DNA of 64,000 nucleotides from an uncultured Candidatus Saccharibacteria bacterium (GTDB lineage: Bacteria; Patescibacteriota; Saccharimonadia; Saccharimonadales; JAGQNJ01), in NCBI GenBank assembly GCA_964603625.1, contig CAZRVM010000001.1:1949-65948 (forward strand). The letters run 5' to 3'. The first letter of the stretch is position 1. Every line of letters begins with the position of its first letter. The notes below the pieces were generated by a model. It was not told the origin of the DNA. It did no database searches and saw nothing but the letters and a program-made list of their open reading frames with translations. Positions 12,452 through 61,294 of the stretch are shown here, in pieces. The translations under genes and the position numbers were made by a program.

Positions 12452-13966
12452 TTATTTATCATTTTTTGGCTTTTTGTTAAATTTTGGAAGTTTTTTATTA
12501 AATATTAATTTTCTACCACCGCTTGCCGCCTCAGCAGGAGTAGTTGCTTGATACAAAAAGTCTGGTTGCTCATATTTATCATAAGTAAGCATTAAGGCTT
12601 GAGATTCTAACATTCTTAAGGTTTCTAATGCTACTGCAACCAAAATCAATATACTAGTTCCACCAATTGTAATATTGGTTTTCAAAAAGGCCTGGCCAAT
12701 TATAGGTAACACTGCGAGCAGTCCCAAAGCTGTGGCTCCGAACAAAGTCAACCTATTAACTACTTTATTTAGATACTTCTCGGTTTGCTTACCCGACCTA
12801 ATGCCCTCTAAGAAACCACCCTGCTGTTGAAGATTTTCAGCAATTTCTGATGAATTAAAGGCAATGCTAGTATAAAAGAAAGTAAATATAAACACTAGTA
12901 AGAAGTAGACAATTGGGTATATATATGGCTCAATTCCGCCAGCGCTAAAAGATTGAGATGTAGGAGTTTGAAACCAGGTAACAAGCTTGGTGCCAATTTC
13001 TTGAAGCCTATCACTATTAGACCCAACAAAAATTTGCCCCAAGAAACTTGGAACACTTAAAAATGCAACAGCAAAAATAATTGGAATTACGCCTGCAGTT
13101 ATTAACTTAACCGGGAGAACAGTAGTGACTCCACCATATAATCTATTTCCCTGTACTCTTTTAGCATAATTTACGGTTAAGTTTCTAGAGGCTTCGTTAA
13201 GTTTTACAACTAATATTGTGGTTACAATAACTATCACAATAATCAACAAAGATAACCAAAAAGCATTTTCATCGATAGGTAGTTGTTTATTTAAGATAGT
13301 CCACTTTTTGTCTGGGCTCACAACGCTACTAATTAAACTTCCAGCCATTTGTGGTAATTGACTAACAATTCCAACAGTAATTATTAAAGATATTCCATTT
13401 CCAATATTTTGCTCAGTTATTAACTCGCCTAACCACATCAATAACATAGATCCACCGGTAAGTGCTGATACCATTAACACCCACTGAGCGATTGATGCAT
13501 TTGCGGTTATATCTCCCAACCCCCCGATACTAGTAGCCGTCTGCCTAACTAGATATATCGAGCCAATAGATTGAATAATGGCAAGCGGAAAAGATAATAT
13601 TCGTGTATACTGGTTAATTTTCTTACGGCCGTATTCACCCTCTTTATTTAAAGCCTCCAGTTTTGGAATGGCGCGTGTTAACAATTGCAGAATAATTGAA
13701 GCATTAATGTATGGGCCTAGACCTACTAACATTATCGAAAAATTAGCTAAAGCTCCACCAGATAAAACATCGATAAAACTCAAGAGCTGAGAAGTCTTTG
13801 ATGATGTAAATAAAGTATCTAAAATTTGCTTTAATGTTTCGCCACTAGCGATTGGTATTGGTAAATGAGCCAACAATCTAAAGATAATAATCATACCAAA
13901 AACTGCAAAAACTTTTTTGCGCATATCGGCGTTTTTAAGTGATTTTAATATGATTTTCCAGTTCAT
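12452..13966 (-). CDS. secY: preprotein translocase subunit SecY (504 aa, longer than usual at the C-terminus)
   Basis: Ten predicted transmembrane segments, SecY plug and hinge-like regions, and a position downstream of rplO. Confidence 0.93.
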   Translation of the reverse strand: MNWKIILKSLKNADMRKKVFAVFGMIIIFRLLAHLPIPIASGETLKQILDTLFTSSKTSQLLSFIDVLSGGALANFSIMLVGLGPYINASIILQLLTRAIPKLEALNKEGEYGRKKINQYTRILSFPLAIIQSIGSIYLVRQTATSIGGLGDITANASIAQWVLMVSALTGGSMLLMWLGELITEQNIGNGISLIITVGIVSQLPQMAGSLISSVVSPDKKWTILNKQLPIDENAFWLSLLIIVIVIVTTILVVKLNEASRNLTVNYAKRVQGNRLYGGVTTVLPVKLITAGVIPIIFAVAFLSVPSFLGQIFVGSNSDRLQEIGTKLVTWFQTPTSQSFSAGGIEPYIYPIVYFLLVFIFTFFYTSIAFNSSEIAENLQQQGGFLEGIRSGKQTEKYLNKVVNRLTLFGATALGLLAVLPIIGQAFLKTNITIGGTSILILVAVALETLRMLESQALMLTYDKYEQPDFLYQATTPAEAASGGRKLIFNKKLPKFNKKPKNDK

Positions 13967-23420: not shown

Positions 23421-23462
23421 TTTTAATAAAAATTAAGACTCGAAATATATTTGAGTCTTAAT
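23421..23462 (-). terminator. rho-independent terminator downstream of tuf
   Basis: 10-bp stem attaagactc / gagtcttaat with an 11-nt loop, followed on the minus strand by TTTTTATT. It lies 20 nt after the tuf stop. Confidence 0.6.
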
Positions 23463-36261: not shown

Positions 36262-36849
36262 TTAAAGGACTTTATCTACCAATCCATATTCACAAGCTTC
36301 TGTTGCTGATAACCATTTATCTCGCTCCATATCTTCTTGGATCTTTTTAATTTTTTGCCCAGTATTTTTTGCCATAATTTCATTAAGCAGTTGTTTTAAC
36401 CTTAGACCTTCTTTTAAGTCTATCTCCATATCGGTTACTTTGCCTCTTGTTCCAGCAGAAGGTTGGTGAATCATAACTGTTGCATGAGGTAAAATAAATC
36501 GCTTACCCTTTGTTCCAGAGCTGAGTAAAAAAGCTGCTGCACTAGCTTGCACTCCAATACCAACAGTTTGAATATCACATTTTACATATTGCATAGTGTC
36601 ATAAATTGCAAAAGCATCGTAGACACTACCGCCAGGGCTATTTATGTAAAATTTAATATCTTTTTTAGGATCTTCATTTTCTAAAAATAAAATTTGAGCA
36701 ACGACTAAATTTGCTGTATGTTCATTTACATCACTTCCCAAGAAAATAATTCTATCTTTAAGTAGCCTAGAGTAAATATCAAAAGCCCGCTCTACTCGAC
36801 CATCTGTCTCTATAACGGTTGGAACTAATATTGAATCATTCATTTTCAT
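36262..36849 (-). CDS. clpP: ATP-dependent Clp protease proteolytic subunit
   Basis: [25 protein letters not shown]...[20 protein letters not shown]...[13 protein letters not shown]... (Ser-His-Asp triad context). Confidence 0.95.
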
Positions 36850-36873
36850 AATAATTTCATTTTATATAAATAA

Positions 36874-36900
36874 TTAGCACTCGTCAAGTAAGAGTGCTAA
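36874..36900. promoter_or_regulatory. CIRCE element (HrcA operator), 25 nt upstream of the clpP start codon
   Basis: ttagcactc-gtcaagtaa-gagtgctaa is a perfect match to the CIRCE consensus TTAGCACTC-N9-GAGTGCTAA. Confidence 0.8.
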
Positions 36901-36912
36901 ATTAGGTAAAGA

Positions 36913-38199
36913 TTATTTTTTTGTTACTACACTTACTAATTTAGCGATAGTTTTTTGAGTAATTAGCCGGCTAGCAATTTCTTGGCGAGCCTCTGGTTTA
37001 TTTAACTCTTCCTGCATTTGCTGATCTTGATATTGATCTTTAAGTAACCGCATTTGTGTATCAAGTTCCTCTGCAGTAACTTGAACTTTTTCGATATTTG
37101 AAATCTCGGCTAAAATTAAGCCGGTTTTTACTCTTGTTTTTGCTTCAGGCAATAATTGGGTCTTAACATATTCATCTTCTGTTAACTTTAAAGTATCTAG
37201 CATTTCTTGCCATGTTTGGCCACGATAAGTTAAACTTTGGCGAACTTCTGTTTTAAGTCTTTCAACTTGTTCGTCTACTAAACTTTTGGGTAAATCAAGT
37301 TCACTTTTAGTTACGATTTGATTAATTAATTCACTCTCAAATTTTGTATTCTCTTGTTTTTGTTTTTCTAATAATAACTGTTTTTTAATATCGGCCTTTA
37401 AATCATCTAAGGTTTTGAACTGTCCAACTTTTTCTGCAAATTTATCATCGAGCTTTGGCTTAACTAACAAATTAACTTGTTTTACTTCTACTTTAAAAGT
37501 TACTTTTTCACCAGCTAATGCTTTTACCCCGTAATCTTTTGGAAAGGTTAATTTAAACTCTTTTTTAGCTTCTTTTTTGAGCCCAACTAAATTTTTTTCA
37601 AAACCAGGAATAAAATTATCACTTCCAAGTATTAATGGATAGTCTTTTCCATCAGCACCTTTTATGGCCTGTTTTTTAGAATCGACACCACTAAAATCTA
37701 TAACAACTTCATCGCCCAATTTTGAAGGACGATCTACACTCTCCCGCGTTGCGTACTTATCACTCAAACTAACTAAAACTTCATTGATATCGGTATTATT
37801 TACCTTTGCTACTACTTTAGTTTTCTTAATCGACTTATAATCAGATAGCTTGATTTTACCTAAAATATCTACATCTGCTTGAAATTCTAAAGTTGTAAAG
37901 GGCACAAATTTTGATAATGAAATATTTGGGCTACCTATGACTTTTATCGATTCCTTAGATACAGCTTGTGCGTAAAGTAAGTTTATAGCTTCATCTAAAA
38001 ACCTAGACTGTAAAGTGTTTTGATCAAGATTTTTTTCAATTAAATGTATTGGCGCTTTGCCCGCTCTAAAGCCAGCAACTTTTAAATCAGCACCCAACTC
38101 TTTGAGAACTTTATGTTTAATTTGATCAAGTTCGCTATCGTCTGCTTTAATTGTTAATAAGCAATGTGTTTTTGAACTATCTTGTCGTTGTACCTGCAT
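36913..38199 (-). CDS. tig: trigger factor
   Basis: 428 aa with a central FKBP-type PPIase region (GFEKNLVGLK...EFKLTFP); located upstream of clpP as in many bacteria. Confidence 0.85.
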   Translation of the reverse strand: MQVQRQDSSKTHCLLTIKADDSELDQIKHKVLKELGADLKVAGFRAGKAPIHLIEKNLDQNTLQSRFLDEAINLLYAQAVSKESIKVIGSPNISLSKFVPFTTLEFQADVDILGKIKLSDYKSIKKTKVVAKVNNTDINEVLVSLSDKYATRESVDRPSKLGDEVVIDFSGVDSKKQAIKGADGKDYPLILGSDNFIPGFEKNLVGLKKEAKKEFKLTFPKDYGVKALAGEKVTFKVEVKQVNLLVKPKLDDKFAEKVGQFKTLDDLKADIKKQLLLEKQKQENTKFESELINQIVTKSELDLPKSLVDEQVERLKTEVRQSLTYRGQTWQEMLDTLKLTEDEYVKTQLLPEAKTRVKTGLILAEISNIEKVQVTAEELDTQMRLLKDQYQDQQMQEELNKPEARQEIASRLITQKTIAKLVSVVTKK

Positions 38200-47588: not shown

Positions 47589-50396
47589 ATGAATACTTCT
47601 AAGCGTAATGGGCGCGTTCATAAAAATATTTTTACCACTAAATCTGGTAAAAATATCAAGATAAATCGTAGTTTATCAGCACGCATAAAAGCCAACAAGG
47701 AAAATCAATCTATGAAAAAAGCTCAAAGGTTGAGTGCAATGCCCAAATCTCGATTTAAACGCTTTTTCTATAGGCTCCACCCAAAACGATTAGCAGCTTA
47801 TTGGTTTAGTCGAGAAGGCGGAATTATGGCACTTAAGCTAATGGGTGCCGGTTTTATTGGTGGATTTGTACTATTAGCTGGACTGTTTGCTTACTTTAGA
47901 AAAGACTTGCCAAATTTACGAGATATTTCAGGCAACAACATTGGTGGAAGTATAAGATATTATGATAAAACTGGCCAAGTTTTATTGTTCGAAGATTACG
48001 ATGCAGTTAAAAGAGTGCCAGTTGGAGAAAACGGCATTAGTCAAGTCATGAAAGATGCCACAGTTGCCATTGAAGATAAAGATTTCTATAAACACGGTGG
48101 TTTTGATGTTCGCGGGATAATGCGTGCAGGTATAAATAATGTTTTTGGCTTATCTGACGGTCAGCAAGGCGGTTCTACGATTACCCAACAACTCGTAAAA
48201 CTTTCTCAAGATTGGACAAAAGACCAAACCTATACTCGTAAAGTTAAAGAGCTGATTATGTCTGTTGAACTAGAACGAGAATATTCTAAACCACAAATTC
48301 TAGCAGGTTATTTAGATACAGCGCCTTATGGAGGAATTGAATATGGCGTAGAAGCAGCCGCACGAGATTATTTTAATAAATCCGCTAAAGATCTAACCTT
48401 AGATGAGGCAGCTATGTTTGCTTCAATCCCTAAATCACCAACTTATTATTCTCCTTATAGTGGTAGTTTTAACAAAGAAGCATTTATTGGAAGGCAACAT
48501 TATGTACTAGACCAAATGGCAGATCAAGGAATGATTACTACTCAGCAACGTGATGAAGCTAAAAAAATTGATACATTGGCTAAAGTTCAACCTCGTAAAC
48601 CAAAATATGATGGTATTAAATCGCCTTGGTTTGTACTTGCCGCTAAAGAGCAATTAGAAGAAACTAGAGGACAAGATGTGATGAGAAGTGGCTGGAAAGT
48701 AACTACCACTCTAGATATGGACCTTCAAGCAAAAGCTGAATCTGCCGTTAGTAAAGGCATGGCCCAAGTTCGTCGACAAGGTGGTGATGTTGCAGCTTTT
48801 GTTGCTGAAGATGTAAAAACTGGTCAAGTGGTTGCTTTGGTAGGTGGTACAGATTTTAGTAATCCTGAGTATGGCCAAAATAATTATGCCCGTTTAAGAT
48901 TACCTCCTGGTTCTAGTTTTAAGCCTTACGATTACACAGCTTTAATAGAAAATACAGAAAATTCTGGTGCCGGTTCGGTACTTTATGATAGTCAAGGTCC
49001 ATTAGAGGGCTACCCTTGCACCAAAAAACAACCACCAAAAAGTGGCGGAAATTGTTTATGGGACTATGATTTAAAATATCCAGGCCCAACCACACTGCGT
49101 TATGCACTTGCAGGTTCTCGAAATGTTCCAGCCGTTAAAGCAATGTTAATTGCTGGCGTAGACAAAACAATCCAAACCGCTGAAAAACTTGGTGTAAAAA
49201 GTGGTTATAAATGCTATGAAGACGATAACTTAACCAAAGAATCACAATGTTATGCTTCTTCGGCTATTGGCGATGGAGCCTATTTAAAACTTGACGAACA
49301 TGTTCACGGCTACAGTTCATTATCAAGAAATGGACTTAATATACCTCAAACTTATATACTAAAAATTGAAGATGCCAATAATAAAGTTGTCAGTGAGTGG
49401 AAGCCAAGTAAGGGCGAACAAGTTGTAAGGCCAGAATCTGCATATATTGTTTCTGATATCTTATCCGATCCTAATGCCAGCTATCTTTCTAGAAAAATTC
49501 AAAACTATAAGGGTCACAAATTTTCTGTTAAAACTGGAACAACTAACGACTCTAAAGATGGTTGGATGATGGGCTTTTCAACACAGTATGCAGCAGGTGT
49601 TTGGGTAGGTTATCATTCTCGACAAAAACAACTGACTGGCTTTATGGAAACTATGACATCACCAATATGGACCAATTGGATGGATTCAGTTCATGATAAT
49701 CTTAAACCAGAAGAAAGAGCTAAGCCTGCAGGTATAATTACAGCCGATGCTTTTGTGCAACGAACTAGCCCTGGTGCAGGCGCAAGAGTTCCCGGACCTA
49801 GTAAAGATATCTTCCCAGCGTGGTACAAAAATACACGCCGAGCCGAAAATGTAAAACGCATTATGGATCAAGTATCTGAAAAGTTAGCAACAGACTGTAC
49901 TCCAGCTAGAGCTAAACAAGAAACATCTGATGCCGGTGCCGAAGCTTTCTCGAGCGATAAATTCTATGGCGCAAATAACGCCAACGGAAGCACTGAAGAT
50001 AAAGACGACATCCATAAATGCGAAGATATCAAACCAAGTATTACGCTAAGTGTCCAAGCTACCGGTGATAGCTATTCTCTGATTGCAACAGTAGTACAGG
50101 GTACCCATCCATTATCTTCAGATAAATTTAAAGGTAATGTAACTTTAACTGCCGATGGGCAACCGTTAGCTGGCGGAAGCTACCAAATTGATAGTTCCGG
50201 CTCGGTTATTTACCAAAATTACAAACCAACTGCAACTGTAACAATTACCGCCACCGTAACAGATAGCGTACTTTATGATGCAACAGATAGTAAAACTATA
50301 ACTTTTAACACAACGCCTCCATCACAAGGTAATGGCAATAATTCTAACAACCCCTTTGGCAACAGGAACAACCCTGGAAACCGAAACGACGATTAA
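47589..50396 (+). CDS. class A penicillin-binding protein (glycosyltransferase + transpeptidase) with a roughly 200-aa C-terminal extension
   Basis: N-terminal TM anchor. GT51 motifs (AIEDKDFYKHGGFD, GGSTITQQLVK). Transpeptidase SSFKP (SxxK) and KTGTT. A Thr/Ser-rich beta-like C-terminal region and an N/G/P/R-rich tail. Confidence 0.9.
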   Translation: MNTSKRNGRVHKNIFTTKSGKNIKINRSLSARIKANKENQSMKKAQRLSAMPKSRFKRFFYRLHPKRLAAYWFSREGGIMALKLMGAGFIGGFVLLAGLFAYFRKDLPNLRDISGNNIGGSIRYYDKTGQVLLFEDYDAVKRVPVGENGISQVMKDATVAIEDKDFYKHGGFDVRGIMRAGINNVFGLSDGQQGGSTITQQLVKLSQDWTKDQTYTRKVKELIMSVELEREYSKPQILAGYLDTAPYGGIEYGVEAAARDYFNKSAKDLTLDEAAMFASIPKSPTYYSPYSGSFNKEAFIGRQHYVLDQMADQGMITTQQRDEAKKIDTLAKVQPRKPKYDGIKSPWFVLAAKEQLEETRGQDVMRSGWKVTTTLDMDLQAKAESAVSKGMAQVRRQGGDVAAFVAEDVKTGQVVALVGGTDFSNPEYGQNNYARLRLPPGSSFKPYDYTALIENTENSGAGSVLYDSQGPLEGYPCTKKQPPKSGGNCLWDYDLKYPGPTTLRYALAGSRNVPAVKAMLIAGVDKTIQTAEKLGVKSGYKCYEDDNLTKESQCYASSAIGDGAYLKLDEHVHGYSSLSRNGLNIPQTYILKIEDANNKVVSEWKPSKGEQVVRPESAYIVSDILSDPNASYLSRKIQNYKGHKFSVKTGTTNDSKDGWMMGFSTQYAAGVWVGYHSRQKQLTGFMETMTSPIWTNWMDSVHDNLKPEERAKPAGIITADAFVQRTSPGAGARVPGPSKDIFPAWYKNTRRAENVKRIMDQVSEKLATDCTPARAKQETSDAGAEAFSSDKFYGANNANGSTEDKDDIHKCEDIKPSITLSVQATGDSYSLIATVVQGTHPLSSDKFKGNVTLTADGQPLAGGSYQIDSSGSVIYQNYKPTATVTITATVTDSVLYDATDSKTITFNTTPPSQGNGNNSNNPFGNRNNPGNRNDD

Positions 50397-50411
50397 CATT
50401 AGCCAAAAAAC

Positions 50412-51752
50412 TTATTGTCTTAAGTAGTCATTTAAAGTATGTTTTACATCTTTAACCGTATGATGAAAGCTATCTTCACTTTTTCCCGCACCAATACTTG
50501 CTTTAAAGCCTAGTTTTTTAGCTTCATTTATTCGTTTGTCTATAAAAGGCACATGTCTAACTTCACCCGCTAAACCTACTTCACCAAATACCACAGCATC
50601 TTGGGATAATTTCAACCCTTTAGTTGCAGACCCAATCGCCATACATATAGCTAAATCAGCGGCTGGTTCGGCAATTTTAATACCTCCAACAATGTTAATA
50701 AATATATCTTTATCACTTAAATTTAACTTAGTCCTTTTTTCTAATACCGCGACCAATAAATTTAATCTATTAAGTTCAATTCCACTAGCTGTTCTTTTAG
50801 GATAGCCAAAATTAGTTTTATTAACCAAAGCTTGAACTTCAACTAATACCGGCCTGGACCCTTCAATTGTTGCTAAAACAATAGATCCATCGGTTGCCTG
50901 CCTTTCTGCAAGTAGTGCTTTTGAAGGGTTATCTACTGGCTCCAACCCAATATCTTTCATTGTAAAAAGAGCCGACTCATTGGTTGATCCGTAACGATTT
51001 TTTATACTTCTAAGTAGTTTAAAACCACCATATCTATCACCCTCAAGCTGAAAAACAGCATCAACAATGTGCTCTAATACTTTTGGTCCGGCAATAGAAC
51101 CTTCTTTATTAACATGGCCAACAATAATAATACTAGTGTCAGTTTGTTTGGCAAAAGACATCAAAAGATTTGTACTGCTACTTATTTGATTAATACTACC
51201 GGCGTTGGAGGAAATTCCCTCAACCTGTAAAGTCTGAATGGAGTCAACAATCACCAAATCATATTTTGATTTTAATATTGTTGCCACTATCTCATCTGTA
51301 ATATTACTAGTTGCAAGTTCAATATTTTCACTAGTAACTCCAAGTCGTTTTGCTCGCATTCCAATTTGAAAGGCTGATTCTTCTCCACTTATATATAATA
51401 TTTTTTTATTAGATTGTGCCAACTTATTTGCAATTTGCATAAGGAGAGTGCTTTTACCAATACCGGGCTCGCCTGCAAACAACATAACTGCACCTTTAAC
51501 AATTCCACCACCTAAAACTCTGTCTACTTCACCATAATTTACTTTAGACCTGCTATGATCTTGCGATGAAACTTTAATTAACGGACTAGGATTAAGTGCT
51601 TTTGATTTTACAGAATGTTTTGAGTCAGAAACATTAACTTTAACTGTCTCTTCTAAGGTATTCCAAAGCCCACAACTATAACATTTTCCGGCCCAAACAG
51701 AAGATTGGGCCCCACAATTATTGCAAATATAGTATTTCCCATTTTTAGACAT
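50412..51752 (-). CDS. radA: DNA repair protein RadA (Sms)
   Basis: N-terminal C4 zinc finger (CNNCGAQSSVWAGKCYSCG), Walker A GEPGIGKST, and a Lon-like C-terminal domain. Confidence 0.9.
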   Translation of the reverse strand: MSKNGKYYICNNCGAQSSVWAGKCYSCGLWNTLEETVKVNVSDSKHSVKSKALNPSPLIKVSSQDHSRSKVNYGEVDRVLGGGIVKGAVMLFAGEPGIGKSTLLMQIANKLAQSNKKILYISGEESAFQIGMRAKRLGVTSENIELATSNITDEIVATILKSKYDLVIVDSIQTLQVEGISSNAGSINQISSSTNLLMSFAKQTDTSIIIVGHVNKEGSIAGPKVLEHIVDAVFQLEGDRYGGFKLLRSIKNRYGSTNESALFTMKDIGLEPVDNPSKALLAERQATDGSIVLATIEGSRPVLVEVQALVNKTNFGYPKRTASGIELNRLNLLVAVLEKRTKLNLSDKDIFINIVGGIKIAEPAADLAICMAIGSATKGLKLSQDAVVFGEVGLAGEVRHVPFIDKRINEAKKLGFKASIGAGKSEDSFHHTVKDVKHTLNDYLRQ

Positions 51753-51936
51753 ATTTATAGTTTAACAAAAATTTATAAGACTTTTGACTTTTAACTTCCT
51801 ATTAGTAAACAGTTTCATAAAATAAAACTTATAATTTCTTTTTTAGCAAAATATAATAAAGGTGCTATTGAGAAAAAAATATAATTTTTACCACTGTAAA
51901 GGTTTTTGATATTTGATAAAAAATCGATAAAACTAT

Positions 51937-52896
51937 TTAAAAACTTTGCGGTCGACTATCTATTGATTGAGCCAAATCTTTTACTTCAACGCTCACTTTA
52001 TTGCGCTCTGTAACAATTTCATTATATTGATTTATCTGCGAATCTACTTGCTTAACCAATTCGTTATACTGATTAACTTTAAAATTAAAACTCGGAACAC
52101 CCTGATTGTACTGTGCAATTTGATTTTTCGAAAGAAGCATATCCAAACCCGATTTTTCAGACATTAAATCTTTATATTTATTTGCTAAGTCTGATTTACT
52201 ACTATCAATTGTGGCTTTCAATTCATCTAATTGCTTATCGTAATCTGCAACTTTTTGTTGACGAGAACTAAATTCTGCCTGATAACGATCTGAAAATGCC
52301 ACAATTGCACTTCTATTTTTAAAATACTTCTTATAATACTCCTCGAGTTTTGGGGGCAAGTTGGATGCCTCAGTAGCCAGTATTGAATGAAGTTCATTAG
52401 GTACTACGCTAGGGTCTTGCTTACGATATTCCTCAACATTTTCCTTAATGTGAACTTTAGCAACATTCTTGTAAGCTTGTTCTGTTAAAGCATCAATTTC
52501 AGTTCTTTGTTTTTCTGACAGCCTAAAATAAGCGGCATGAAGCATTTCATGAGCTGCGGTAACTTCTTTAATGCCATCTAGCCTCTGGTCTGTAACATTA
52601 TAAATAAAAATTCCAGCGTCTGGTGTGTAGCATCCTAAAACTATTGAACTTTCATGGCCACATTCACTATTAATAGTACCAGCAGGAGCAATATATGGAT
52701 GGTTTACATAAAATATTCTTCTTCCATATTCCGTCATTGTTGTTTGATTCGCTAAAGTAACAACTTCAGCTGGTGGCGAGTAATTACGCAGATAATACCA
52801 ATCAACAACTTCTTGGCGTCCAAGCCACAGAAACACTATACCTGCTATAAGTGAAAGAGATAAAATTATCCCTAGCAGTTTTTTTATATATTTCAT
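51937..52896 (-). CDS. membrane-anchored hypothetical protein with an HExxH motif and a coiled-coil C-terminus
   Basis: N-terminal TM (LLGIILSLSLIAGIVFLWL). AAHEMLHAAY. C-terminal heptad-rich region. Confidence 0.5.
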   Translation of the reverse strand: MKYIKKLLGIILSLSLIAGIVFLWLGRQEVVDWYYLRNYSPPAEVVTLANQTTMTEYGRRIFYVNHPYIAPAGTINSECGHESSIVLGCYTPDAGIFIYNVTDQRLDGIKEVTAAHEMLHAAYFRLSEKQRTEIDALTEQAYKNVAKVHIKENVEEYRKQDPSVVPNELHSILATEASNLPPKLEEYYKKYFKNRSAIVAFSDRYQAEFSSRQQKVADYDKQLDELKATIDSSKSDLANKYKDLMSEKSGLDMLLSKNQIAQYNQGVPSFNFKVNQYNELVKQVDSQINQYNEIVTERNKVSVEVKDLAQSIDSRPQSF

Positions 52897-52932
52897 ATCT
52901 ATTTAATTATAAGCTAAACCAGCTTAAAAGTA

Positions 52933-55410
52933 CTACTCTTCAATAATTGAATATGACAATTTTTTATTTTTAATACTAACTTCAACAATTGTACCTTTTT
53001 GGTATGTGCCTTCTATTAATTTACTTGCAATATGATCTTCTAGAGTGTCTTGAATTAAGCGCCTCATTGGCCTTACACCATTTAAGACATCATAACCTTT
53101 ATCAAGCAAATAATTTTTAGCTTGAGGAGTCAATTTAATACTTATGCCTTGTTTATTTAACCTTGTTTTAAGCTCCATTATCTGAAGATCAAGTATTTTA
53201 AGAATATTTAGTTTGGTTAAAGCCTTAAATACAATTGTTTTATCAATCCTATTGAAAAATTCAGGGCGCAACATTTTCTTTAATTGTTCTAGCACTTTAT
53301 CTTTATTAGATTTATGGAGATTCTCAAGATTTTCAAAATCTAGCTTATCATCTGCGCCAAATCCAAGTGTTACTTCTTTTTGTAGTTTTTCGGCACCAAT
53401 ATTACTTGTCATTATTACAATTGTATTTGTAAAATCAATTTTTCTTCCCTTTGCATCCGTAAGAATCCCATCTTCCAGAATTTGAAGCATCATATTGAAA
53501 ACATCTGGGTGAGCTTTTTCTATTTCATCAAATAAAACCACACTATATGGTTGTCTGCGAATTTTATCTGTTAACTGCCCCCCATCATCATAGCCGACAT
53601 AACCAGCAGGCGATCCAACAAGTCTAGATACATTATGATGTTCGCCAAATTCGCTCATATCTATTTTCACCAAGGCCTGGTCTGATCCAAAAAATTCTCT
53701 TGCTAAAACTCTAGCTAATTCTGTTTTACCAACACCAGTTGGGCCCAAGAAAATAAATGAACCAATTGGTCTTTTGCCGCTACTAATTCCAGAACGACTC
53801 CTTCTAACAGCTTTAGAAACTACCTTAACGGCCTGATCTTGACCAATAATAAATTTACTAAGATTTTTCTCTAAATTAAGTAAATATTTAGCTTCAGACC
53901 TAATGACACGCTTTACCGGCACACCTGTAGATCGAGAAACAATTTCGGCAACATCATCGCTGGTCATTACAATTTCTTTAGTTACCTTTACTTTTTTTTG
54001 AACTTTTTTTATCTCGGCATTAATTTGACTTGCTCGTTGCTTATGTTTGGCTGCAGACTCATAATCTTCATTATCTACGGCATCTTCTATTTTAGCATTA
54101 ATCAATTTAAGCTCTTTTCTAAGCATTCTTAATTCTGGCGGTGTTCGGCCTTTATCTATTTTTAAATGAGCCGATGTTTCATCAAGCAAATCTATTGCTT
54201 TATCTGGCATAAATCTATCGTTAATGTATCTATCTGCTAAATTTACGATATCTTCAATTACTTCATCAGATACAGTCACGCCATGAAAAGCTTCAAAATG
54301 CTTTCTTAAACCTTTCAAAATAGCAACAGTTTCAGTAATTGTTGTTTCAGGTACTTGAATTGGCTGAAAGCGTCTTTCAAGTGCGCTATCTTTTTCTATG
54401 TACTTTGTATACTCGGTAGTAGTGGTGGCACCAATTACTTGAATTTTTCCTCTTGATAGGGCTGGTTTCAAAATGTTTCCAGCATCTAAAGCCCCTTCAG
54501 CAGCGCCTGCCCCAACAATTAAATGAAGCTCATCAATAAAAATAATTGTATTTTTATCGTTTTCTAATTCTTGCATTACTTTTTTTAATCGTTCTTCAAA
54601 TTCTCCCCGATATTTTGTACCGGCAATCATCCCAGTTAAATCCAACATAACTACTCGTTTATCAACTAAACTATCTGGTACATCTTCACTAATTATTCGT
54701 TGTGCCAAGCCTTCGACGATTGCGGTTTTGCCAACTCCCGGCTCACCAATTAGTACCGGGTTATTCTTGGTACGCCTATTTAAAACTGTAATCACTCGAT
54801 TAATTTGTGATTCTCGTCCTACCACAGGGTCTAATTTGCCAGCTCTTGCTTGAGCAGTTAAATCAGTTCCAAAAAAATCTAAGGCCGATTTACGACGCTG
54901 TTTTGTTCTTATCCTTCCTTGCCCGTCTGGAGACTGCTCTTCATATTGTTGTCTATTTAAAAATTGTTCTATGCCAGTAATTAAACCCGTAACATTAACA
55001 TTCATATCTCTAAGCAAAACGGTTGCTCGGGCATTTTTTTGGCTCAAAATGCTGTAAAGTATATGCTCCGTACCACACATATCTTGGTTGTAGTCTTGAG
55101 CAACATCATAGGCCATTTTCAGTGTTAATTTTGCGGTCTCGCTCAACCCTTTAGCACCCATACTGGTTATTGTAGTCTTGGGCGATAACTTTAAAGCCAT
55201 ACTCGCTTTATTAAGGGTAATACCAGCGTCATTCAAGATTTTTGCTCCTATTGAACTATCTTGAGCTAAAACTCCTAGTAACAAGTGCTCTGTGCCTACA
55301 TACGAACTACCAGAAGCCCTCGAGATACCATCGGCATGTTGTAAACTTCTTAAAGCGTTCTCTGTTAGGTGGTTTAAAAATTCTTGAAATTCAGCAGAGT
55401 TTGGTGGCAT
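52933..55410 (-). CDS. clpC: ATP-dependent Clp protease ATP-binding subunit ClpC
   Basis: Two Clp_N repeats, two AAA+ modules ([18 protein letters not shown]; [15 protein letters not shown]), and a UVR-like motif ([19 protein letters not shown]). 825 aa. Confidence 0.92.
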
Positions 55411-55508
55411 AATCCCTCCTTTTAGTTTTATCGTAGTTTAATTGGATATTTCTTATCGATTTATTCATAATTTTTGCGAACTTAATCGCTAATTCCAGTA
55501 TATTAAAA

Positions 55509-55535
55509 TTAGCACTCATATGTCAAGAGTGCTAA
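55509..55535. promoter_or_regulatory. CIRCE element (HrcA operator) upstream of clpC
   Basis: ttagcactc-atatgtcaa-gagtgctaa is a perfect 9-N9-9 CIRCE consensus, 98 nt upstream of the clpC ATG and 22 nt downstream of the nusA stop. Confidence 0.8.
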
Positions 55536-55556
55536 TTTATTATCTTGAAACTTTTT

Positions 55557-56729
55557 CTATTCGCCGTGTTCTTCAATAGCTTCTAGTAAACTACTCTCAA
55601 GCTCACTTTTTTTCTTTATTGGTGTTGCAATTTTTGGTTCAGAACTTTGTTCTTTTGGCTCTTTTGTACTCTCATCAGATATGGGCTTAGATTTATCACC
55701 GATAATATCTATTTCATATTCGGTTAACTTACTAGCTAACCTAACATTCTGACCAGATTTACCAATAGCAATACTCAACTGATCTTCTGGTACATGTACA
55801 ATTGCCTTTTTAGATTTTTCATCTATTTCAACTTTAGAAACTGTTGTGGGGCTTAAAGCATTAATAACAAATTCTTTTGAGTTTGCGCTCCAAACTATGA
55901 TATCTATCTTCTCTTGCTCACCTATTTCACTCATCACTGCATTAACTCGAATGCCATGCCCTCCAACAAAGGTACCCACTGGGTCAACACCCTGAACATT
56001 GCTAACAACAGCAATTTTACTCCTAACTCCAGCTTCTCTAGCGATTGATTTTATGGCAACCGCACCATTTTCCATTTCTGGTACCTCAGCTCTAAATAGC
56101 CATTCAATAAATTGTGTACTTCCTCTAGATAATACTAACTGTGGCCCTCTTGGACCTTTTTCGACATCCTTTAAAAATACCTTCAGGCGTTGACCTGAAT
56201 AATAATGTTCTCCCTGAATTTGTTCGCTTGCAGGCAATATTCCTTGCACTTTGCCTAAATCAACCCTAACTACATTTCCGTCTACTCTAGCAACAATTCC
56301 GTTAAGGATTGTGTTAATTTTATCTTGATACTCATCTACTATAATTTCGCGCTCGGCTTCTCGTAATTTCTGAAGGATTACCTGCTTTGCAGTTTGTGCA
56401 GCCACTCGCCCAAAACTAGAAACATCCTGATGCAAAACTAAAACTTCGCCAATTTCAGCATTTTTCTTAATTACTTGAGCGTCCGACAGACTGATTTGTG
56501 TTTGAGGATCTTCAACAGGCTCACTAACAGTTTTCGAAATATAGGCATCAACATCACCAGTATGCAAATTTACACTAACACTTACTTCTTGCTCTCTATC
56601 GCCATAATCTTTTTTATAGGCAGCTGCTAAGGCCTGCTCAACTATATCTTGAACAGTTTCTTCGGGTAAATTTTTTTCTTCAGCTATAGCTCTTAATGCT
56701 ACTGTTAGTTGTTTAATATCTAAATCCAT
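55557..56729 (-). CDS. nusA: transcription termination/antitermination protein NusA
   Basis: N-terminal domain, S1, and two KH domains. Start placed at the ATG at 56729 (MDLDIKQLTVALRAIAEEKNL). Confidence 0.88.
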   Translation of the reverse strand: MDLDIKQLTVALRAIAEEKNLPEETVQDIVEQALAAAYKKDYGDREQEVSVSVNLHTGDVDAYISKTVSEPVEDPQTQISLSDAQVIKKNAEIGEVLVLHQDVSSFGRVAAQTAKQVILQKLREAEREIIVDEYQDKINTILNGIVARVDGNVVRVDLGKVQGILPASEQIQGEHYYSGQRLKVFLKDVEKGPRGPQLVLSRGSTQFIEWLFRAEVPEMENGAVAIKSIAREAGVRSKIAVVSNVQGVDPVGTFVGGHGIRVNAVMSEIGEQEKIDIIVWSANSKEFVINALSPTTVSKVEIDEKSKKAIVHVPEDQLSIAIGKSGQNVRLASKLTEYEIDIIGDKSKPISDESTKEPKEQSSEPKIATPIKKKSELESSLLEAIEEHGE

Positions 56730-56865
56730 TAATTTCCTTTCTTTTTTAGTAAAGTCATTACTAGTAAAAAAATCGACCATTCCGGCCGACCTTATCTCTA
56801 ACAATCAAATTATATCACAAATTCTTAACAATCAAAAAAATTTAAATTTGCTTTCTTTAAAAAAA

Positions 56866-58557
56866 CTAATCTTGGCAAGAATACGAACCATCACTTAGTT
56901 TAGCTCTCATAGCAAATAAGTGGGTTTGTTCATTAGCCACAAATTCACCGTTAGAACAAGAAACTTTAATTTTATATTGAACTTCGCCATCTTTAGGAGT
57001 CTCATCTGTAATTATAAGTTGCTGATAATAAAAATCATTGGAGCCAGATTGAACAGATTGCTCCAAAATTTCATTCACTGCTTCGGCATTTGGAGGTATA
57101 GCACCATTGTTATCATTGGAAAATTCATAGATAGAAGCCATATATGAAGAAATTGCGTTTTTAATCATAGTATCTTTGGCGGATGTAGGCTGACTATTAG
57201 CACTAGTAATACCATTACCAAATAACGATTCTATTTCCGATTTCAAATCTTTAATATTCATAGAATCAGCCGGAGCTTCAATTTTAAGGCTTTTATCATT
57301 AATTTTAATTGTGCTAACAAATTCCATAGTAATAGTCTCTTCACTTGTAGTAACTTTAAGCTTGGTTGGTAAACGAGTTTTGCTACCTACCCAAAGTTCA
57401 ACAACTGGTTTGATTTCATCGGCTTCCTTGTCTGCATTATTTTTGAGGTCCTCAAGCTGTTTATCATATTTTTCATCTTTAAGTTCACAATCAGATTTGA
57501 GAGTTTTATAAGATTCTAGCTCTAACATTGACTTCATGAATGTAATTGACTTTTGCTCATTAAAATCAAGTTTGTAATGATAACTAGACTCATTTTCAAT
57601 CTTTTCTTTTGGTAGTTTTTCTACAGCAAATGCAAACTGATTTTCTAAAAATAACTTCTTTATTTGTTTTTGATCTTTTTTAGATATTCGTAAATTTTTT
57701 AAAGCGTTGGAGCATTTATCTACTTCTTCTTCAGAATTAGCAAAACCAAGATCCACCAAACTCTGTTTATCAATTTTTATCCATTTATTATCGATTTTAT
57801 CTACTAGCGGTTTATAGACATCCACAACTGATGCGAGATCTGTGCTATTTTTAGATACTTGATCAACCGTCTGGCGAAGATCAGCGAATTTCACATAAAT
57901 CTCATCAGAACCAAGCATAATTACTGCGCCCTTAACTGTTACATCCACATTTTCATATTTTAAGTTTAAGCTAGCTTCTTGTTGAAAGTTGTTATCTGCA
58001 GTTTTAGAACTGAATTCAATTGTTGCATTGCCTTTCTTGGAGCCTTTAAATTCATATTTAACAGAACCTATTGCAGAAGAAGGTTTTCTATCTAGTAAGT
58101 CTTTCAAGGAGTTTCCTAGTGCGTCAGCCAATACTTTTTCGGGTTTGTTATTCATAATCGTGTAATAAGCATAGCCACCACCTCCACCAAGTATCAGCAA
58201 AAACACTAAAGCAATAATAATAATTTTTAAAAATCGTTTCTTTTTTTGTTTAGATTCAGAATCTACAATACTAGAAGCTGCCTGGCCTGGTGGGCTAAAC
58301 TGAAACGGCTGTTTAGTTGTGTTAGCCGGAGTGCTCTGGCTCTCAACAATAACATTTGGCTGATTAGAAACACTAACATTATCTTCAGGTCTTAACATTT
58401 GAGGATTACTTGCGGTTGGGGTATTTGATAATTGGCTAGGCGCAGGCTCAACTGGTTGAGCTTGAGATTCTAATGGGATAGGATTGTTTATACTTGAATT
58501 AGCTAACTCGTTGTTTACATCTTGCTTTTTTTCTGGATTGAATTGATTGTTTTCCAT
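56866..58557 (-). CDS. hypothetical membrane-anchored protein (563 aa) with a low-complexity N-terminus and a large extracytoplasmic domain
   Basis: Pro/Ser/Gln/Asn-rich N-terminal 110 aa. Single TM (IIIIALVFLLILGGGGGYAYYTI). C-terminal Cys pair (CSNG...SYSC). Confidence 0.5.
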   Translation of the reverse strand: MENNQFNPEKKQDVNNELANSSINNPIPLESQAQPVEPAPSQLSNTPTASNPQMLRPEDNVSVSNQPNVIVESQSTPANTTKQPFQFSPPGQAASSIVDSESKQKKKRFLKIIIIALVFLLILGGGGGYAYYTIMNNKPEKVLADALGNSLKDLLDRKPSSAIGSVKYEFKGSKKGNATIEFSSKTADNNFQQEASLNLKYENVDVTVKGAVIMLGSDEIYVKFADLRQTVDQVSKNSTDLASVVDVYKPLVDKIDNKWIKIDKQSLVDLGFANSEEEVDKCSNALKNLRISKKDQKQIKKLFLENQFAFAVEKLPKEKIENESSYHYKLDFNEQKSITFMKSMLELESYKTLKSDCELKDEKYDKQLEDLKNNADKEADEIKPVVELWVGSKTRLPTKLKVTTSEETITMEFVSTIKINDKSLKIEAPADSMNIKDLKSEIESLFGNGITSANSQPTSAKDTMIKNAISSYMASIYEFSNDNNGAIPPNAEAVNEILEQSVQSGSNDFYYQQLIITDETPKDGEVQYKIKVSCSNGEFVANEQTHLFAMRAKLSDGSYSCQD

Positions 58558-58717
58558 ATTTCAATTTCTTTTTTTTAATTATGTTAGTGATTATATTTAT
58601 TATGTTTATTAAAGTCAAAACAAATTGGTAGTCTCGTATACGAAATGAATGGTAGTTTCATTTTAAGCAAATTCTATTTTAATTATAAAACTAAATAATA
58701 TCTGTTATTCTATATAA

Positions 58718-61294
58718 GTGAGCAAAAAAACCAAGCACTTATATTCTCAGTTTCAACCTACTAACTACCAACTCAATCTTGCTATTGATAAAGATACACT
58801 GTCTTTTAAAGGCAAAGTTTTAATTGCCGGGCAAAAAGTTGGCAGACCAGCTCAGCGCATTAGCCTACATCAACGCGATTTAAAAATTACATCCGCTAAA
58901 TTGGTTAGAGTAGAAAAAACATCAAAAATACCAATATCAATTAGTAAAACTTACAGTCATAAAGCTTATGACGAACTACGAATTCACTCTAACCAAATTC
59001 TTAAATCTGGCGATTATGAAATTGAAATTGAATTTAACGGCAAGATTACTGAGCATATGCTTGGTATTTACCCATCATATTTCACTCACAAAGATAAAAA
59101 GGAAGTTATTATTGCTACCCAATTTGAAAGTCATTATGCAAGAGAAGCTTTTCCATGCATTGACGAACCTATTGCCAAAGCTACTTTTGACCTAACACTT
59201 ACAACCAAACAAGGTGATGAAGTTATTGCAAATACTCCAACAAAATCTCAATCTAATAAAAATGGCCTTGTTACCACCGTATTTGAAACAACTCCTAAAA
59301 TGTCTACTTACTTGCTTGCTTTTGTGACTGGGCCTCTGCATTCTGTAGAACGAAAAACTAAAACTGGCACAATTGTTAGAAGCTGGTCTGCAATCTCAAG
59401 ACCTAAAAGCCAACTAAAGTATTCTGTATATGAAGCTGTGAAAATCCTAGAATTCTTTACAGATTATTTTGGCGTAGATTATCCACTTACAAAGTGTGAC
59501 CAAGTTGCTTTGCCAGATTTTGATGCTGGGGCTATGGAAAATTGGGGTTTAATTACCTATCGTGAAGTAGCCCTACTTAGCGACCCAGACAATCCATCAA
59601 TTTCAAGTGATCAATACATATCATTAGTGATTGCCCATGAGCTTTCACATCAATGGTTTGGAAATCTCGTTACCATGAAATGGTGGGACGATTTATGGCT
59701 AAATGAGAGTTTTGCAAGTCTTATGGAGCATGTCGCTTTGGATGCAATTCATCCAAATTGGTTCCAGTGGGAATGCTATACTGCAACCGATGTGCTAACT
59801 ACAACTTCTAGAGATATTTTTCAAGACATACAACCCGTAGGAGTCAAAGTAAAAGATCCAGTGCTTATTGATACACTCTTTGATCCAGGAATTGTGTACG
59901 CTAAGGGTGGCCGTTTACTAAAAATGCTCCACGACTACATTGGCGATAGAGCCTTCAGGCATGGGCTTCAAATCTATTTTAAAAAGCATGCTTATAGTAA
60001 TACTAGCCGAAATGACCTTTGGTTAGCAATGACCGAAGCTAGTGGAAAAGATATCTCTTCTTTAATGACGCCCTGGATAGAAAAACCAGGCATGCCACTA
60101 ATTAGCATTAACCAAAACAAAAAACAGTTAATTTGTGTACAGCAAAGATTCTTACTAGATGGCAAAAATCATAAATCTAATTGGCCAATTCCATTGCTTG
60201 CAAACCAAAAACTTTCAAAAGATATTCTTACCAAACACCGTGCCGGCTTTAGTTTAGTTAGTGAAGAGCTAATAATAATTAATCTATTTGGGAGTGGCCA
60301 TTATTTTACTCACTACGAAGACTTAGATCACAAGAAATTCCTTGCTAAACAAATCACAGACCGCTCGGTGCCTACCGAAACTCGCATTAATCTTTTAAAC
60401 GACAGCTATATGCTAGCCAGAGGTGCCAAAAGCTCATTAGTGGATTCGCTAGAACTAATTGCAAATTGTTCAACTGAAGATCGCGATAATGTTTGGACTT
60501 TAATCTGCCGAATAATTGCTTCTGCTAGTCTATTGACTGAAGGTAATAAGCAAACCGAAAAAGCTATTAATTCTTTTAAAATTAAATTAGCGAAATATTG
60601 GTATGATCAATACGGCTGGACACACAAGCAAAATGATGATCCAAATACCAAACAGCTTCGCCATACCGCAATTGCCCTGATGATTGGTGGTGAAGACAAG
60701 ACAGCTATTAACCAAGCAATTAAAATTTATAAACAAGCCAAAAACTTAGATGAAATAGACGCTGAAATGAGAGCTAGTATTTTAAGTGCGGTCATCAGAC
60801 ACAACAATTCAAAAAGTGATATTAATAAATTTATTAAACTCTACCCTAATGTTTCTTCAGACATACAATCAGATTTAACCTCTGCACTTTCTAAAGTTAA
60901 AAATGAAGAAACCGCTCAATTTATTCTTAATTTGGCTTTGGGCGAATCTGGTTTTGTACGATCTCAAGATGTAATTCGGTGGCTCAATATGTTCTTACAT
61001 AACAAAAATACCAAAGAAGTTACCTGGAACTTCATAACTGAACAATGGGATTGGTTAGAGAGTATTTTCTCTAAAAGTAAAAGTTTTGACTACATTCCAA
61101 CGATTACAGCAAGCGTAATGAATACAAAAGTTCTACAAAATAAATATATTAAATTTTTTGAACCCAAGCTATCAGATAAAACACTTTCTCAAAATATAAA
61201 TATTGGTTTTTCAAATATCTCGGCATTACTAAAATGGCGTAAGCGTGATGAAGAAAAGATTATTAATTTCTTTAAATCTCAGCCAAAAAATTAG
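58718..61294 (+). CDS. pepN: aminopeptidase N (M1 family)
   Basis: GAMEN motif (FDAGAMENWGLITYRE) and HELSHQWFGNLVTMKWWDDLWLNESFAS (HExxH-x18-E). 858 aa. Confidence 0.93.
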   Translation: MSKKTKHLYSQFQPTNYQLNLAIDKDTLSFKGKVLIAGQKVGRPAQRISLHQRDLKITSAKLVRVEKTSKIPISISKTYSHKAYDELRIHSNQILKSGDYEIEIEFNGKITEHMLGIYPSYFTHKDKKEVIIATQFESHYAREAFPCIDEPIAKATFDLTLTTKQGDEVIANTPTKSQSNKNGLVTTVFETTPKMSTYLLAFVTGPLHSVERKTKTGTIVRSWSAISRPKSQLKYSVYEAVKILEFFTDYFGVDYPLTKCDQVALPDFDAGAMENWGLITYREVALLSDPDNPSISSDQYISLVIAHELSHQWFGNLVTMKWWDDLWLNESFASLMEHVALDAIHPNWFQWECYTATDVLTTTSRDIFQDIQPVGVKVKDPVLIDTLFDPGIVYAKGGRLLKMLHDYIGDRAFRHGLQIYFKKHAYSNTSRNDLWLAMTEASGKDISSLMTPWIEKPGMPLISINQNKKQLICVQQRFLLDGKNHKSNWPIPLLANQKLSKDILTKHRAGFSLVSEELIIINLFGSGHYFTHYEDLDHKKFLAKQITDRSVPTETRINLLNDSYMLARGAKSSLVDSLELIANCSTEDRDNVWTLICRIIASASLLTEGNKQTEKAINSFKIKLAKYWYDQYGWTHKQNDDPNTKQLRHTAIALMIGGEDKTAINQAIKIYKQAKNLDEIDAEMRASILSAVIRHNNSKSDINKFIKLYPNVSSDIQSDLTSALSKVKNEETAQFILNLALGESGFVRSQDVIRWLNMFLHNKNTKEVTWNFITEQWDWLESIFSKSKSFDYIPTITASVMNTKVLQNKYIKFFEPKLSDKTLSQNINIGFSNISALLKWRKRDEEKIINFFKSQPKN

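Follow-up and report, generated by a model that had tools for sequence, protein, structure and literature searches.

Genes and elements at the locus

The stretch of DNA analysed here (the window, 64,000 nucleotides long) carries on its minus strand, in this order, nusA, a CIRCE element, clpC, a conserved gene of unknown function and radA, and a second CIRCE precedes clpP on the same strand (Table 1). On the plus strand, positions 55509-55535 read TTAGCACTC-ATATGTCAA-GAGTGCTAA, whose arms around nine free positions make up a perfect CIRCE, the consensus being quoted as TTAGCACTC-N9-GAGTGCTAA (PMC7464140, PMC545781). The layout on the coding strand of clpC is TTAGCACTC-TTGACATAT-GAGTGCTAA-TTTTAA-TATACT; the 3′ end of the element lies 98 nt before the clpC ATG, and the element overlaps the best promoter match of the region.

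Table 1. Positions of the genes, operators, promoter parts and hairpin discussed in the text
Feature	Position	Strand	Remarks
clpP	36262..36849	-	
clpP promoter TTGACG-17-TAAAAT	36859..36887	-	-35 in spacer positions 5-9 and the first base of the arm
Partner CIRCE upstream of clpP	36874..36900	-	coding strand TTAGCACTC-TTACTTGAC-GAGTGCTAA
Trigger factor gene	36913..38199	-	
radA	50412..51752	-	conserved position downstream of clpC
319-aa gene of unknown function, between clpC and radA	51937..52896	-	syntenic in relatives
clpC (825 aa)	52933..55410	-	two Clp_N repeats, two AAA modules, LGF ClpP-docking loop
Shine-Dalgarno GGAGG	55415..55419	-	4 nt before the clpC ATG; read directly
Predicted transcription start	55489..55491	-	6-8 nt after the -10; deduced from the promoter match
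-10 hexamer TATACT	55497..55502	-	spaced 18 nt from the -35 and 6 nt from the arm
Extended hairpin in nusA read-through RNA	55506..55538	-	12-bp stem (AAA + arm / arm + UUU), 9-nt loop
CIRCE operator	55509..55535	-	coding strand TTAGCACTC-TTGACATAT-GAGTGCTAA; 0 mismatches to the consensus
-35 hexamer TTGACA	55521..55526	-	spacer positions 1-6 of the CIRCE
nusA	55557..56804	-	TIGR01953, 373.7 bits, above cut-off; stop codon 21 nt upstream of the CIRCE

An earlier, sequence-only reading of this DNA had described a perfect CIRCE between the nusA stop (55557) and the clpC start (55410), flanked by A/T runs on both sides and repeated with identical arms upstream of clpP. Direct reading of the arms and of the surroundings confirmed each of these points: both neighbouring genes are on the minus strand, and 36874-36900 is the sole other site in the window. 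With up to 3 mismatches allowed, the whole 64 kb yielded these two elements, both perfect, for a chance expectation of 0.01 matches (mean of shuffled sequences), and two sites were reached in none of 100 shuffles. The same reading had noticed the motif GTCAAG in both loops. The hexamer does occur in both copies, but in the clpC copy the final G already belongs to the arm, as its first base, and the spacer holds GTCAA only; what had been missed is that the shared motif is the reverse complement of CTTGAC, the core of a -35 hexamer on the coding strand. A mobile or otherwise repeated element was also considered and rejected, as there are only two copies, both at conserved orthologous promoter positions.

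The ATPase downstream of the element is of the ClpC type. Its best solved relative is ClpC of S. aureus (793 bits, full length), further ones being B. subtilis ClpC/MecB and M. tuberculosis ClpC1, and ClpB aligns to it in two pieces only. Moreover, the LGF tripeptide can be read in its translation at the position of the ClpP-docking loop. The window is from a Saccharimonadales (Saccharibacteria) genome: all of the closest relatives of this protein (66-79% identity) belong to genomes of Candidatus Saccharibacteria / Saccharimonadales, and look-ups of exactly identical proteins placed genes of the window on ENA metagenome contigs where gene order and CIRCE are the same. The 319-aa gene keeps its syntenic position in nearly all related Saccharimonadales loci, at 36-59% identity; it has no Pfam match, and NCBIfam gives only weak, below-cut-off matches to SMC-like models. 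It probably belongs to the same operon as clpC and is co-transcribed with it.

Another palindrome of the window, at 23432-23462 just downstream of the tuf stop, has a 12-bp stem of about -12 kcal/mol and probably serves to terminate tuf. Its arms, TTAAGACTC and GAGTCTTAA, agree with those of the CIRCE at 7/9 positions.

A predicted promoter inside the operator

In a promoter scan the best match of the region was TTGACA-18-TATACT, with 11 of 12 consensus positions, whose -35 hexamer falls within the CIRCE and whose spacer is mostly made up of the right arm of the palindrome (55509-55517). The 400-nt region contains 3 promoter-like hexamers where 1.2 are expected; in AT-rich DNA such hexamers turn up often, so that conservation is the main ground for the promoter call. 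The features of a sigma-70 promoter are found here, with hexamers 16-18 nt apart at a conserved position. Transcription is predicted to begin ~18 nt past the palindrome, near 55490, and the CIRCE would therefore lie outside the clpC mRNA. The predicted 5′ UTR, as measured from the promoter position, would be about 80 nt long and end in the strong GGAGG.

No conserved structure came out of this leader, RNAalifold giving no pairs across 15 clpC leaders, and an Rfam search of region 50000-60000 returned one chance hit and no family match. By eye, a 5′-proximal AGCGA and a TCGCT before the Shine-Dalgarno sequence can be seen in the clpC leaders of four relatives (L002, L012, L018 and L023) and of the window (55405-55494); pairing between them was not substantiated, as RNAalifold found no consensus pairing in the 15 leaders.

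At clpP the -35 hexamer sits at the other end of the spacer (Table 1), a layout repeated in two relatives, L205 and L207. Between the end of the -10 (TAAAAT) and the ATG at 36849 there are 9 nt, and a Shine-Dalgarno sequence is not visible for clpP in the window; from this arrangement, the clpP mRNA is probably leaderless. Similar short distances were observed in the upstream regions of L205, L207 and L330, with TAAAAT-6 nt-ATG for clpP and TATAAT-7 nt-ATG for hrcA, and many metagenomic hrcA genes start 8-21 nt past a CIRCE.

Conservation of the element in Saccharimonadales

Among the 30 closest clpC loci, 27 have DNA upstream of the gene, and in all 27, from Saccharimonadales, a CIRCE is found 16-175 nt before clpC. 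Thirteen of these elements are perfect; the others depart from the consensus by one mismatch (12 loci), two (one locus) or three (one locus). The same scan, within about 6 kb, detected no CIRCE at any of 50 clpC loci from Firmicutes, Cyanobacteria and Planctomycetes, nor at a more distant locus of Patescibacteria (L030, 52% identity). The element keeps with clpC at loci, at least ten in number, where nusA is 0.7-4 kb away. Upstream of clpP, a CIRCE with at most 1 mismatch is present in 5/5 relatives, at 21-47 nt from the gene; these five ClpP homologues (82-92% identity) had been picked only by the length of their contigs.

The conservation extends to the spacer. TTGAC begins at spacer position 1 in 25 of 28 clpC loci (window counted), and the best-scoring -35 begins at CIRCE position 10, followed by a -10, in 24 of the 28, loci that are orthologous and hence not statistically independent. 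When the loci were aligned by their palindromes, the information content was 1.4-1.8 bits at the five TTGAC positions and 0.14-0.47 bits at the remaining four of the spacer. In the relatives, a TAnnAT hexamer is found 16-18 nt past TTGAC. The three exceptions have a shifted -35, namely TCGACA (L002), TTGACG at the 3′ end of the spacer (L014) and TTGCAC (L018). For clpP, three of the five relatives have TTGAC at spacer position 1 and two at the 3′ end, the window resembling these two. As a baseline we took 58 distinct perfect CIRCEs from IMG/VR contigs, the spacer playing no part in their selection: TTGAC stood at spacer position 1 in none of them and at the 3′ end in three. Set against this baseline, the spacers of the relatives indicate that the embedded -35 is a design specific to the lineage and not a general property of CIRCE.

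HrcA and its regulon in the lineage

The gene for the CIRCE-binding repressor, hrcA, was not found in the window nor in about 10 kb beyond either end, a reach obtained through the exact-protein look-ups, and hrcA, groEL and dnaK are all absent from the 27 annotated ORFs of the window. An end fragment of 239 residues, similar in size to HrcA, was rejected as a candidate, since its translation, judged by eye, is the C-terminus of a secretion ATPase. From three relatives (L008, L331 and L330) together with metagenome contigs, we infer that the genome of the window has the gene as well. In L008 and L331 the order is nusA, CIRCE, hrcA, grpE, CIRCE, clpC and radA, and in L330 it is CIRCE, hrcA, grpE, then CIRCE, dnaK and dnaJ. 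The L008 protein (239 aa) passed both Pfam models for HrcA (PF01628 with 66 bits, PF03444 with 27 bits), and its N-terminal winged helix matches that of Thermotoga maritima HrcA (1stz) with an E of 2e-17. All of the 120 homologues listed measure 234-246 aa; many are named heat-inducible transcriptional repressor (JGI), and two are assigned to Saccharimonadales (NCBI). To judge from these sequences, hrcA is a standard, well-conserved gene of the order, putatively autoregulated through the same fusion of operator and promoter.

The repressor of this lineage, Saccharimonadales and related CPR contigs included, is short. The solved T. maritima HrcA has 338 aa and the proteins found here lack roughly 100 residues: against 1stz the N-terminal winged helix alone aligns, and of the Pfam C-terminal model only the part beyond profile position about 82-105 is matched. 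Loci coding for short HrcA proteins are L008:4582-5301, L330:5001-5711 and L331:5001-5720, as well as 22 metagenome loci among L081-L160. In some relatives the hrcA-grpE pair between nusA and clpC is flanked by two CIRCEs in direct orientation (L008, 4512-5825; L331, 4920-6330). Speculatively, the nusA-CIRCE-clpC order of the window could derive from such an arrangement, if the segment between the two repeats was lost or relocated.

A broader view of the regulon was obtained from an exact-pattern scan of metagenomes for a CIRCE with TTGAC at the start of its spacer, which gave at least 120 stretches and, at 72 usable sites, a first downstream ORF. Among the Pfam matches listed for these 72 sites, the first ORF was HrcA in 22, Hsp70 in 14, Clp_N in 10, ClpP in 3 and GroES in 3, numbers that tell what the design controls and not how frequent it is, as the sample was preselected for the TTGAC spacer. 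The complete HrcA proteins of this sample have 217-275 aa, the Clp_N ORFs comprise both ClpC-like and ClpB proteins, and single cases of GroEL, Hsp20 and DnaJ were recognised by their N-terminal sequence. The regulon-mates hrcA, dnaK and groES (by Pfam) and groEL (by N-terminal sequence) are thus seen behind CIRCE plus TTGAC in the lineage, not in the genome of the window itself. In four unrelated high-GC contigs (L085, L088, L121 and L153), the first ORF after the CIRCE is a small zinc-ribbon gene of the FmdB type (PF09723).

Proposed mechanism of regulation

We consider it very likely, from the arrangement of these sequences, that an HrcA operator (CIRCE) is fused here with the clpC promoter in such a way that bound HrcA blocks the polymerase, that the clpP copy works alike and that the Clp genes of this bacterium belong to the HrcA regulon. 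The operator role that the sequence-only reading had proposed for the element, paired with the copy at clpP, is supported by the CIRCE found at all 27 clpC and all five clpP loci, and by an HrcA encoded in the lineage. The sequence, its conservation, the geometry of the promoter, the occurrence of HrcA in the lineage and the content of the regulon are observed; that HrcA binds, where transcription starts, that repression works by occlusion and that stress induces the genes are the parts of this model that we infer.

In detail, the -35 TTGACA lies within the 9-bp spacer of the palindrome, the right arm serves as promoter spacer and the -10 TATACT follows 6 nt on. A dimer of HrcA sitting on both arms would cover the -35 and the spacer and exclude the sigma-70 RNA polymerase: since the arms recognised by HrcA flank the -35 and the right arm fills the gap between -35 and -10, exclusion by the bound repressor should be direct. 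GroEL modulation of HrcA is established for B. subtilis. Under stress, unfolded proteins would titrate GroEL, or heat would inactivate HrcA, and the repressor would leave; clpC would then be transcribed, probably along with the 319-aa gene and radA. The clpP copy would act in the same way, bringing both halves of the ClpCP protease into the HrcA chaperone regulon.

The main rival to a pure operator is a dual role, in which the hairpin followed by UUUUAAUA would in addition terminate nusA transcription, as the sequence-only reading had suggested, or strongly attenuate it, and so insulate clpC from read-through. The nusA stop is so close to the CIRCE that no room is left for a separate terminator, and the hairpin is stable: the 9-bp stem, with 4 G-C pairs, a 9-nt loop and the tail TTTTAATA, has -11.7 kcal/mol, values reach -12.8 kcal/mol for a 9-10 bp stem, and in its 76-nt context the energy is -20.4 kcal/mol (z -4.95). 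The standard terminator scan made no call at the site, limited as it is to loops of 3-8 nt and thus blind to a loop of 9 nt; when loops up to 10 nt were allowed, the CIRCE hairpin was among the strongest hairpin-plus-T-tail sites of the window. On the other hand, the tail runs to just 4 U before AA, and base pairing between the A and T runs on either side of the element consumes the U-tract. At least 5 T in the 8-nt tail were found at just 10 of 28 loci, and most loci read [A/G]TGCTAnnAT there, an extended -10. Even where nusA ends within about 20 nt of the CIRCE, three of seven such loci (L011, L012 and L021) have 2-4 T in the tail, and where nusA and clpC are apart the element goes with clpC. 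The suggestion of a nusA terminator therefore survives only in part: the stable hairpin plus UUUUAAUA looks weakly terminator-like in this AT-rich genome, but the T-rich tail is missing from most relatives and the CIRCE follows clpC. What has been conserved is not termination; locally there may be a weak effect, or a roadblock by bound HrcA, and we regard the dual role as unlikely.

Far less probable still is that the palindrome acts mainly as RNA, as a stability or processing hairpin of a nusA-clpC co-transcript, and not primarily as a DNA operator. Such a function has been reported for the CIRCE RNA in the groE leader of B. subtilis, and the hairpin here is stable as RNA and would be present in any read-through transcript. 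However, the conserved promoter, if real, starts the clpC mRNA downstream of the palindrome, the arms are kept as the exact CIRCE sequence and not through compensatory changes, and the same element stands before genes with quite different upstream neighbours. Binding by another regulator, such as a CtsR-like class III repressor with GTCAAG as part of its operator, is the least credible reading: the motif resembles one CtsR heptad (GGTCAAA), and clpC and clpP are classical CtsR targets (PMC3472708). Against it, both arms agree exactly with CIRCE, an element that in this lineage also stands before hrcA, dnaK and groES, and the tandem heptad is absent, a search for RGTCAAANANRGTCAAA (RGTCAAA-NAN-RGTCAAA) having given 13 matches versus 13.9 expected, each with 3 mismatches and not one of them close to clpC or clpP.

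Returning to the fusion of HrcA operator and promoter, we lean, with less assurance than for the clpC locus itself, towards its extension to a whole network. In Saccharimonadales, and probably in many other Patescibacteria (CPR), the entire proteostasis network (hrcA-grpE, dnaK-dnaJ, groES/EL, clpC, clpP, clpB and hsp20) may run on one circuit made of a short HrcA (~235-245 aa) and a CIRCE whose spacer holds the -35. Repressor and sigma factor would compete for the same 27 bp, often for transcripts that lack a leader, and HrcA would have assumed the class III (CtsR) role towards the Clp protease.

Comparison with known systems

The element itself is a canonical CIRCE; unlike the textbook case, it has clpC and clpP as targets, a -35 in its spacer, order-wide use and a short HrcA. 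With the HrcA/CIRCE system of the B. subtilis type, known from the groESL and hrcA-grpE-dnaK-dnaJ operons, it shares identical 9-bp arms and the 9-bp spacing, and in both cases HrcA is autoregulated through its own CIRCE, in the lineage as judged from the sequences above, with dnaK and groES in the same regulon. In Bacillus, CIRCE lies between the start site and the ribosome-binding site, whereas here the operator spans the -35 and the promoter spacer and would be outside the regulated mRNA. Moreover, the targets clpC and clpP are in Bacillus members of the CtsR regulon, the spacer is constrained in sequence (TTGAC) and the HrcA protein is about 100 residues shorter.

The same genes are regulated in the CtsR regulon of Firmicutes (the clpC operon and clpP), and the linkage of clpC with radA is also found in the Firmicutes clpC operon. 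In contrast, the tandem heptad operator of that regulon is absent here, and upstream of the clpC of the window there is nusA and no ctsR, mcsA or mcsB.

Operators interlocked with a core promoter have been described elsewhere. At the clpB promoter of Mycoplasma gallisepticum the CIRCE abuts or interlocks with an extended -10 (PMC5282649). The Mollicutes regulon thus resembles the present one in its reduced genome, in placing a Clp/Hsp100 ATPase under HrcA and in the interlocking of operator and core promoter; it differs in that clpB is the target and the overlap is on the -10 side, while here the targets are clpC and clpP and the -35 is inside the spacer of the palindrome. In Campylobacter jejuni and Helicobacter pylori, HrcA recognises a single inverted repeat in the core promoter, and repression is thought to occur by steric exclusion of the polymerase (PMC7464140), in line with the mechanism proposed here. 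Those sites, however, are degenerate CIRCE-like repeats centred on the transcription start, at the groESL and hrcA promoters and acting together with HspR, with no clp genes and no embedded -35. That HrcA can take over the gene of a Clp ATPase has a precedent in clpL of Lactobacillus gasseri (cited in PMC3192767), a single gene in a lineage that also keeps CtsR, unlike the order-wide control of clpC and clpP. Clp genes outside this lineage appear in the HrcA regulon only sporadically, L. gasseri clpL and Mollicutes clpB being examples. Our literature search, which was poor in subscription journals, found no paper tying HrcA/CIRCE to Saccharibacteria or the candidate phyla radiation and, among the top matches for Patescibacteria, no such link; nor did it find a description of a -35 within a CIRCE spacer, an absence that in such a search is weak evidence.

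How Saccharibacteria and other CPR bacteria regulate their genes has hardly been explored, and the locus offers a clean, testable module, with a perfect operator and a predicted promoter of fixed geometry. The regulon unites chaperones and the ClpCP protease under one repressor, which suggests a way in which the class I and class III heat-shock responses are merged when a genome is reduced. With its arms given over to the repressor and its spacer to sigma, the element is convenient for studies of the competition between repressor and polymerase, and it is a candidate stress-inducible promoter for the few cultivable TM7 strains. The type of element is well known, so that the gain is incremental and not fundamental.

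Perfect CIRCEs were also observed as arrays in IMG/VR contigs classed as viral. Three copies 49 nt apart occur in one of them (L266, 5424-5548) and a pair 37 nt apart in another (L289, 7037-7100), and a 13-kb contig of the same class (L225) has a perfect CIRCE at each end (19-45 and 13001-13027).
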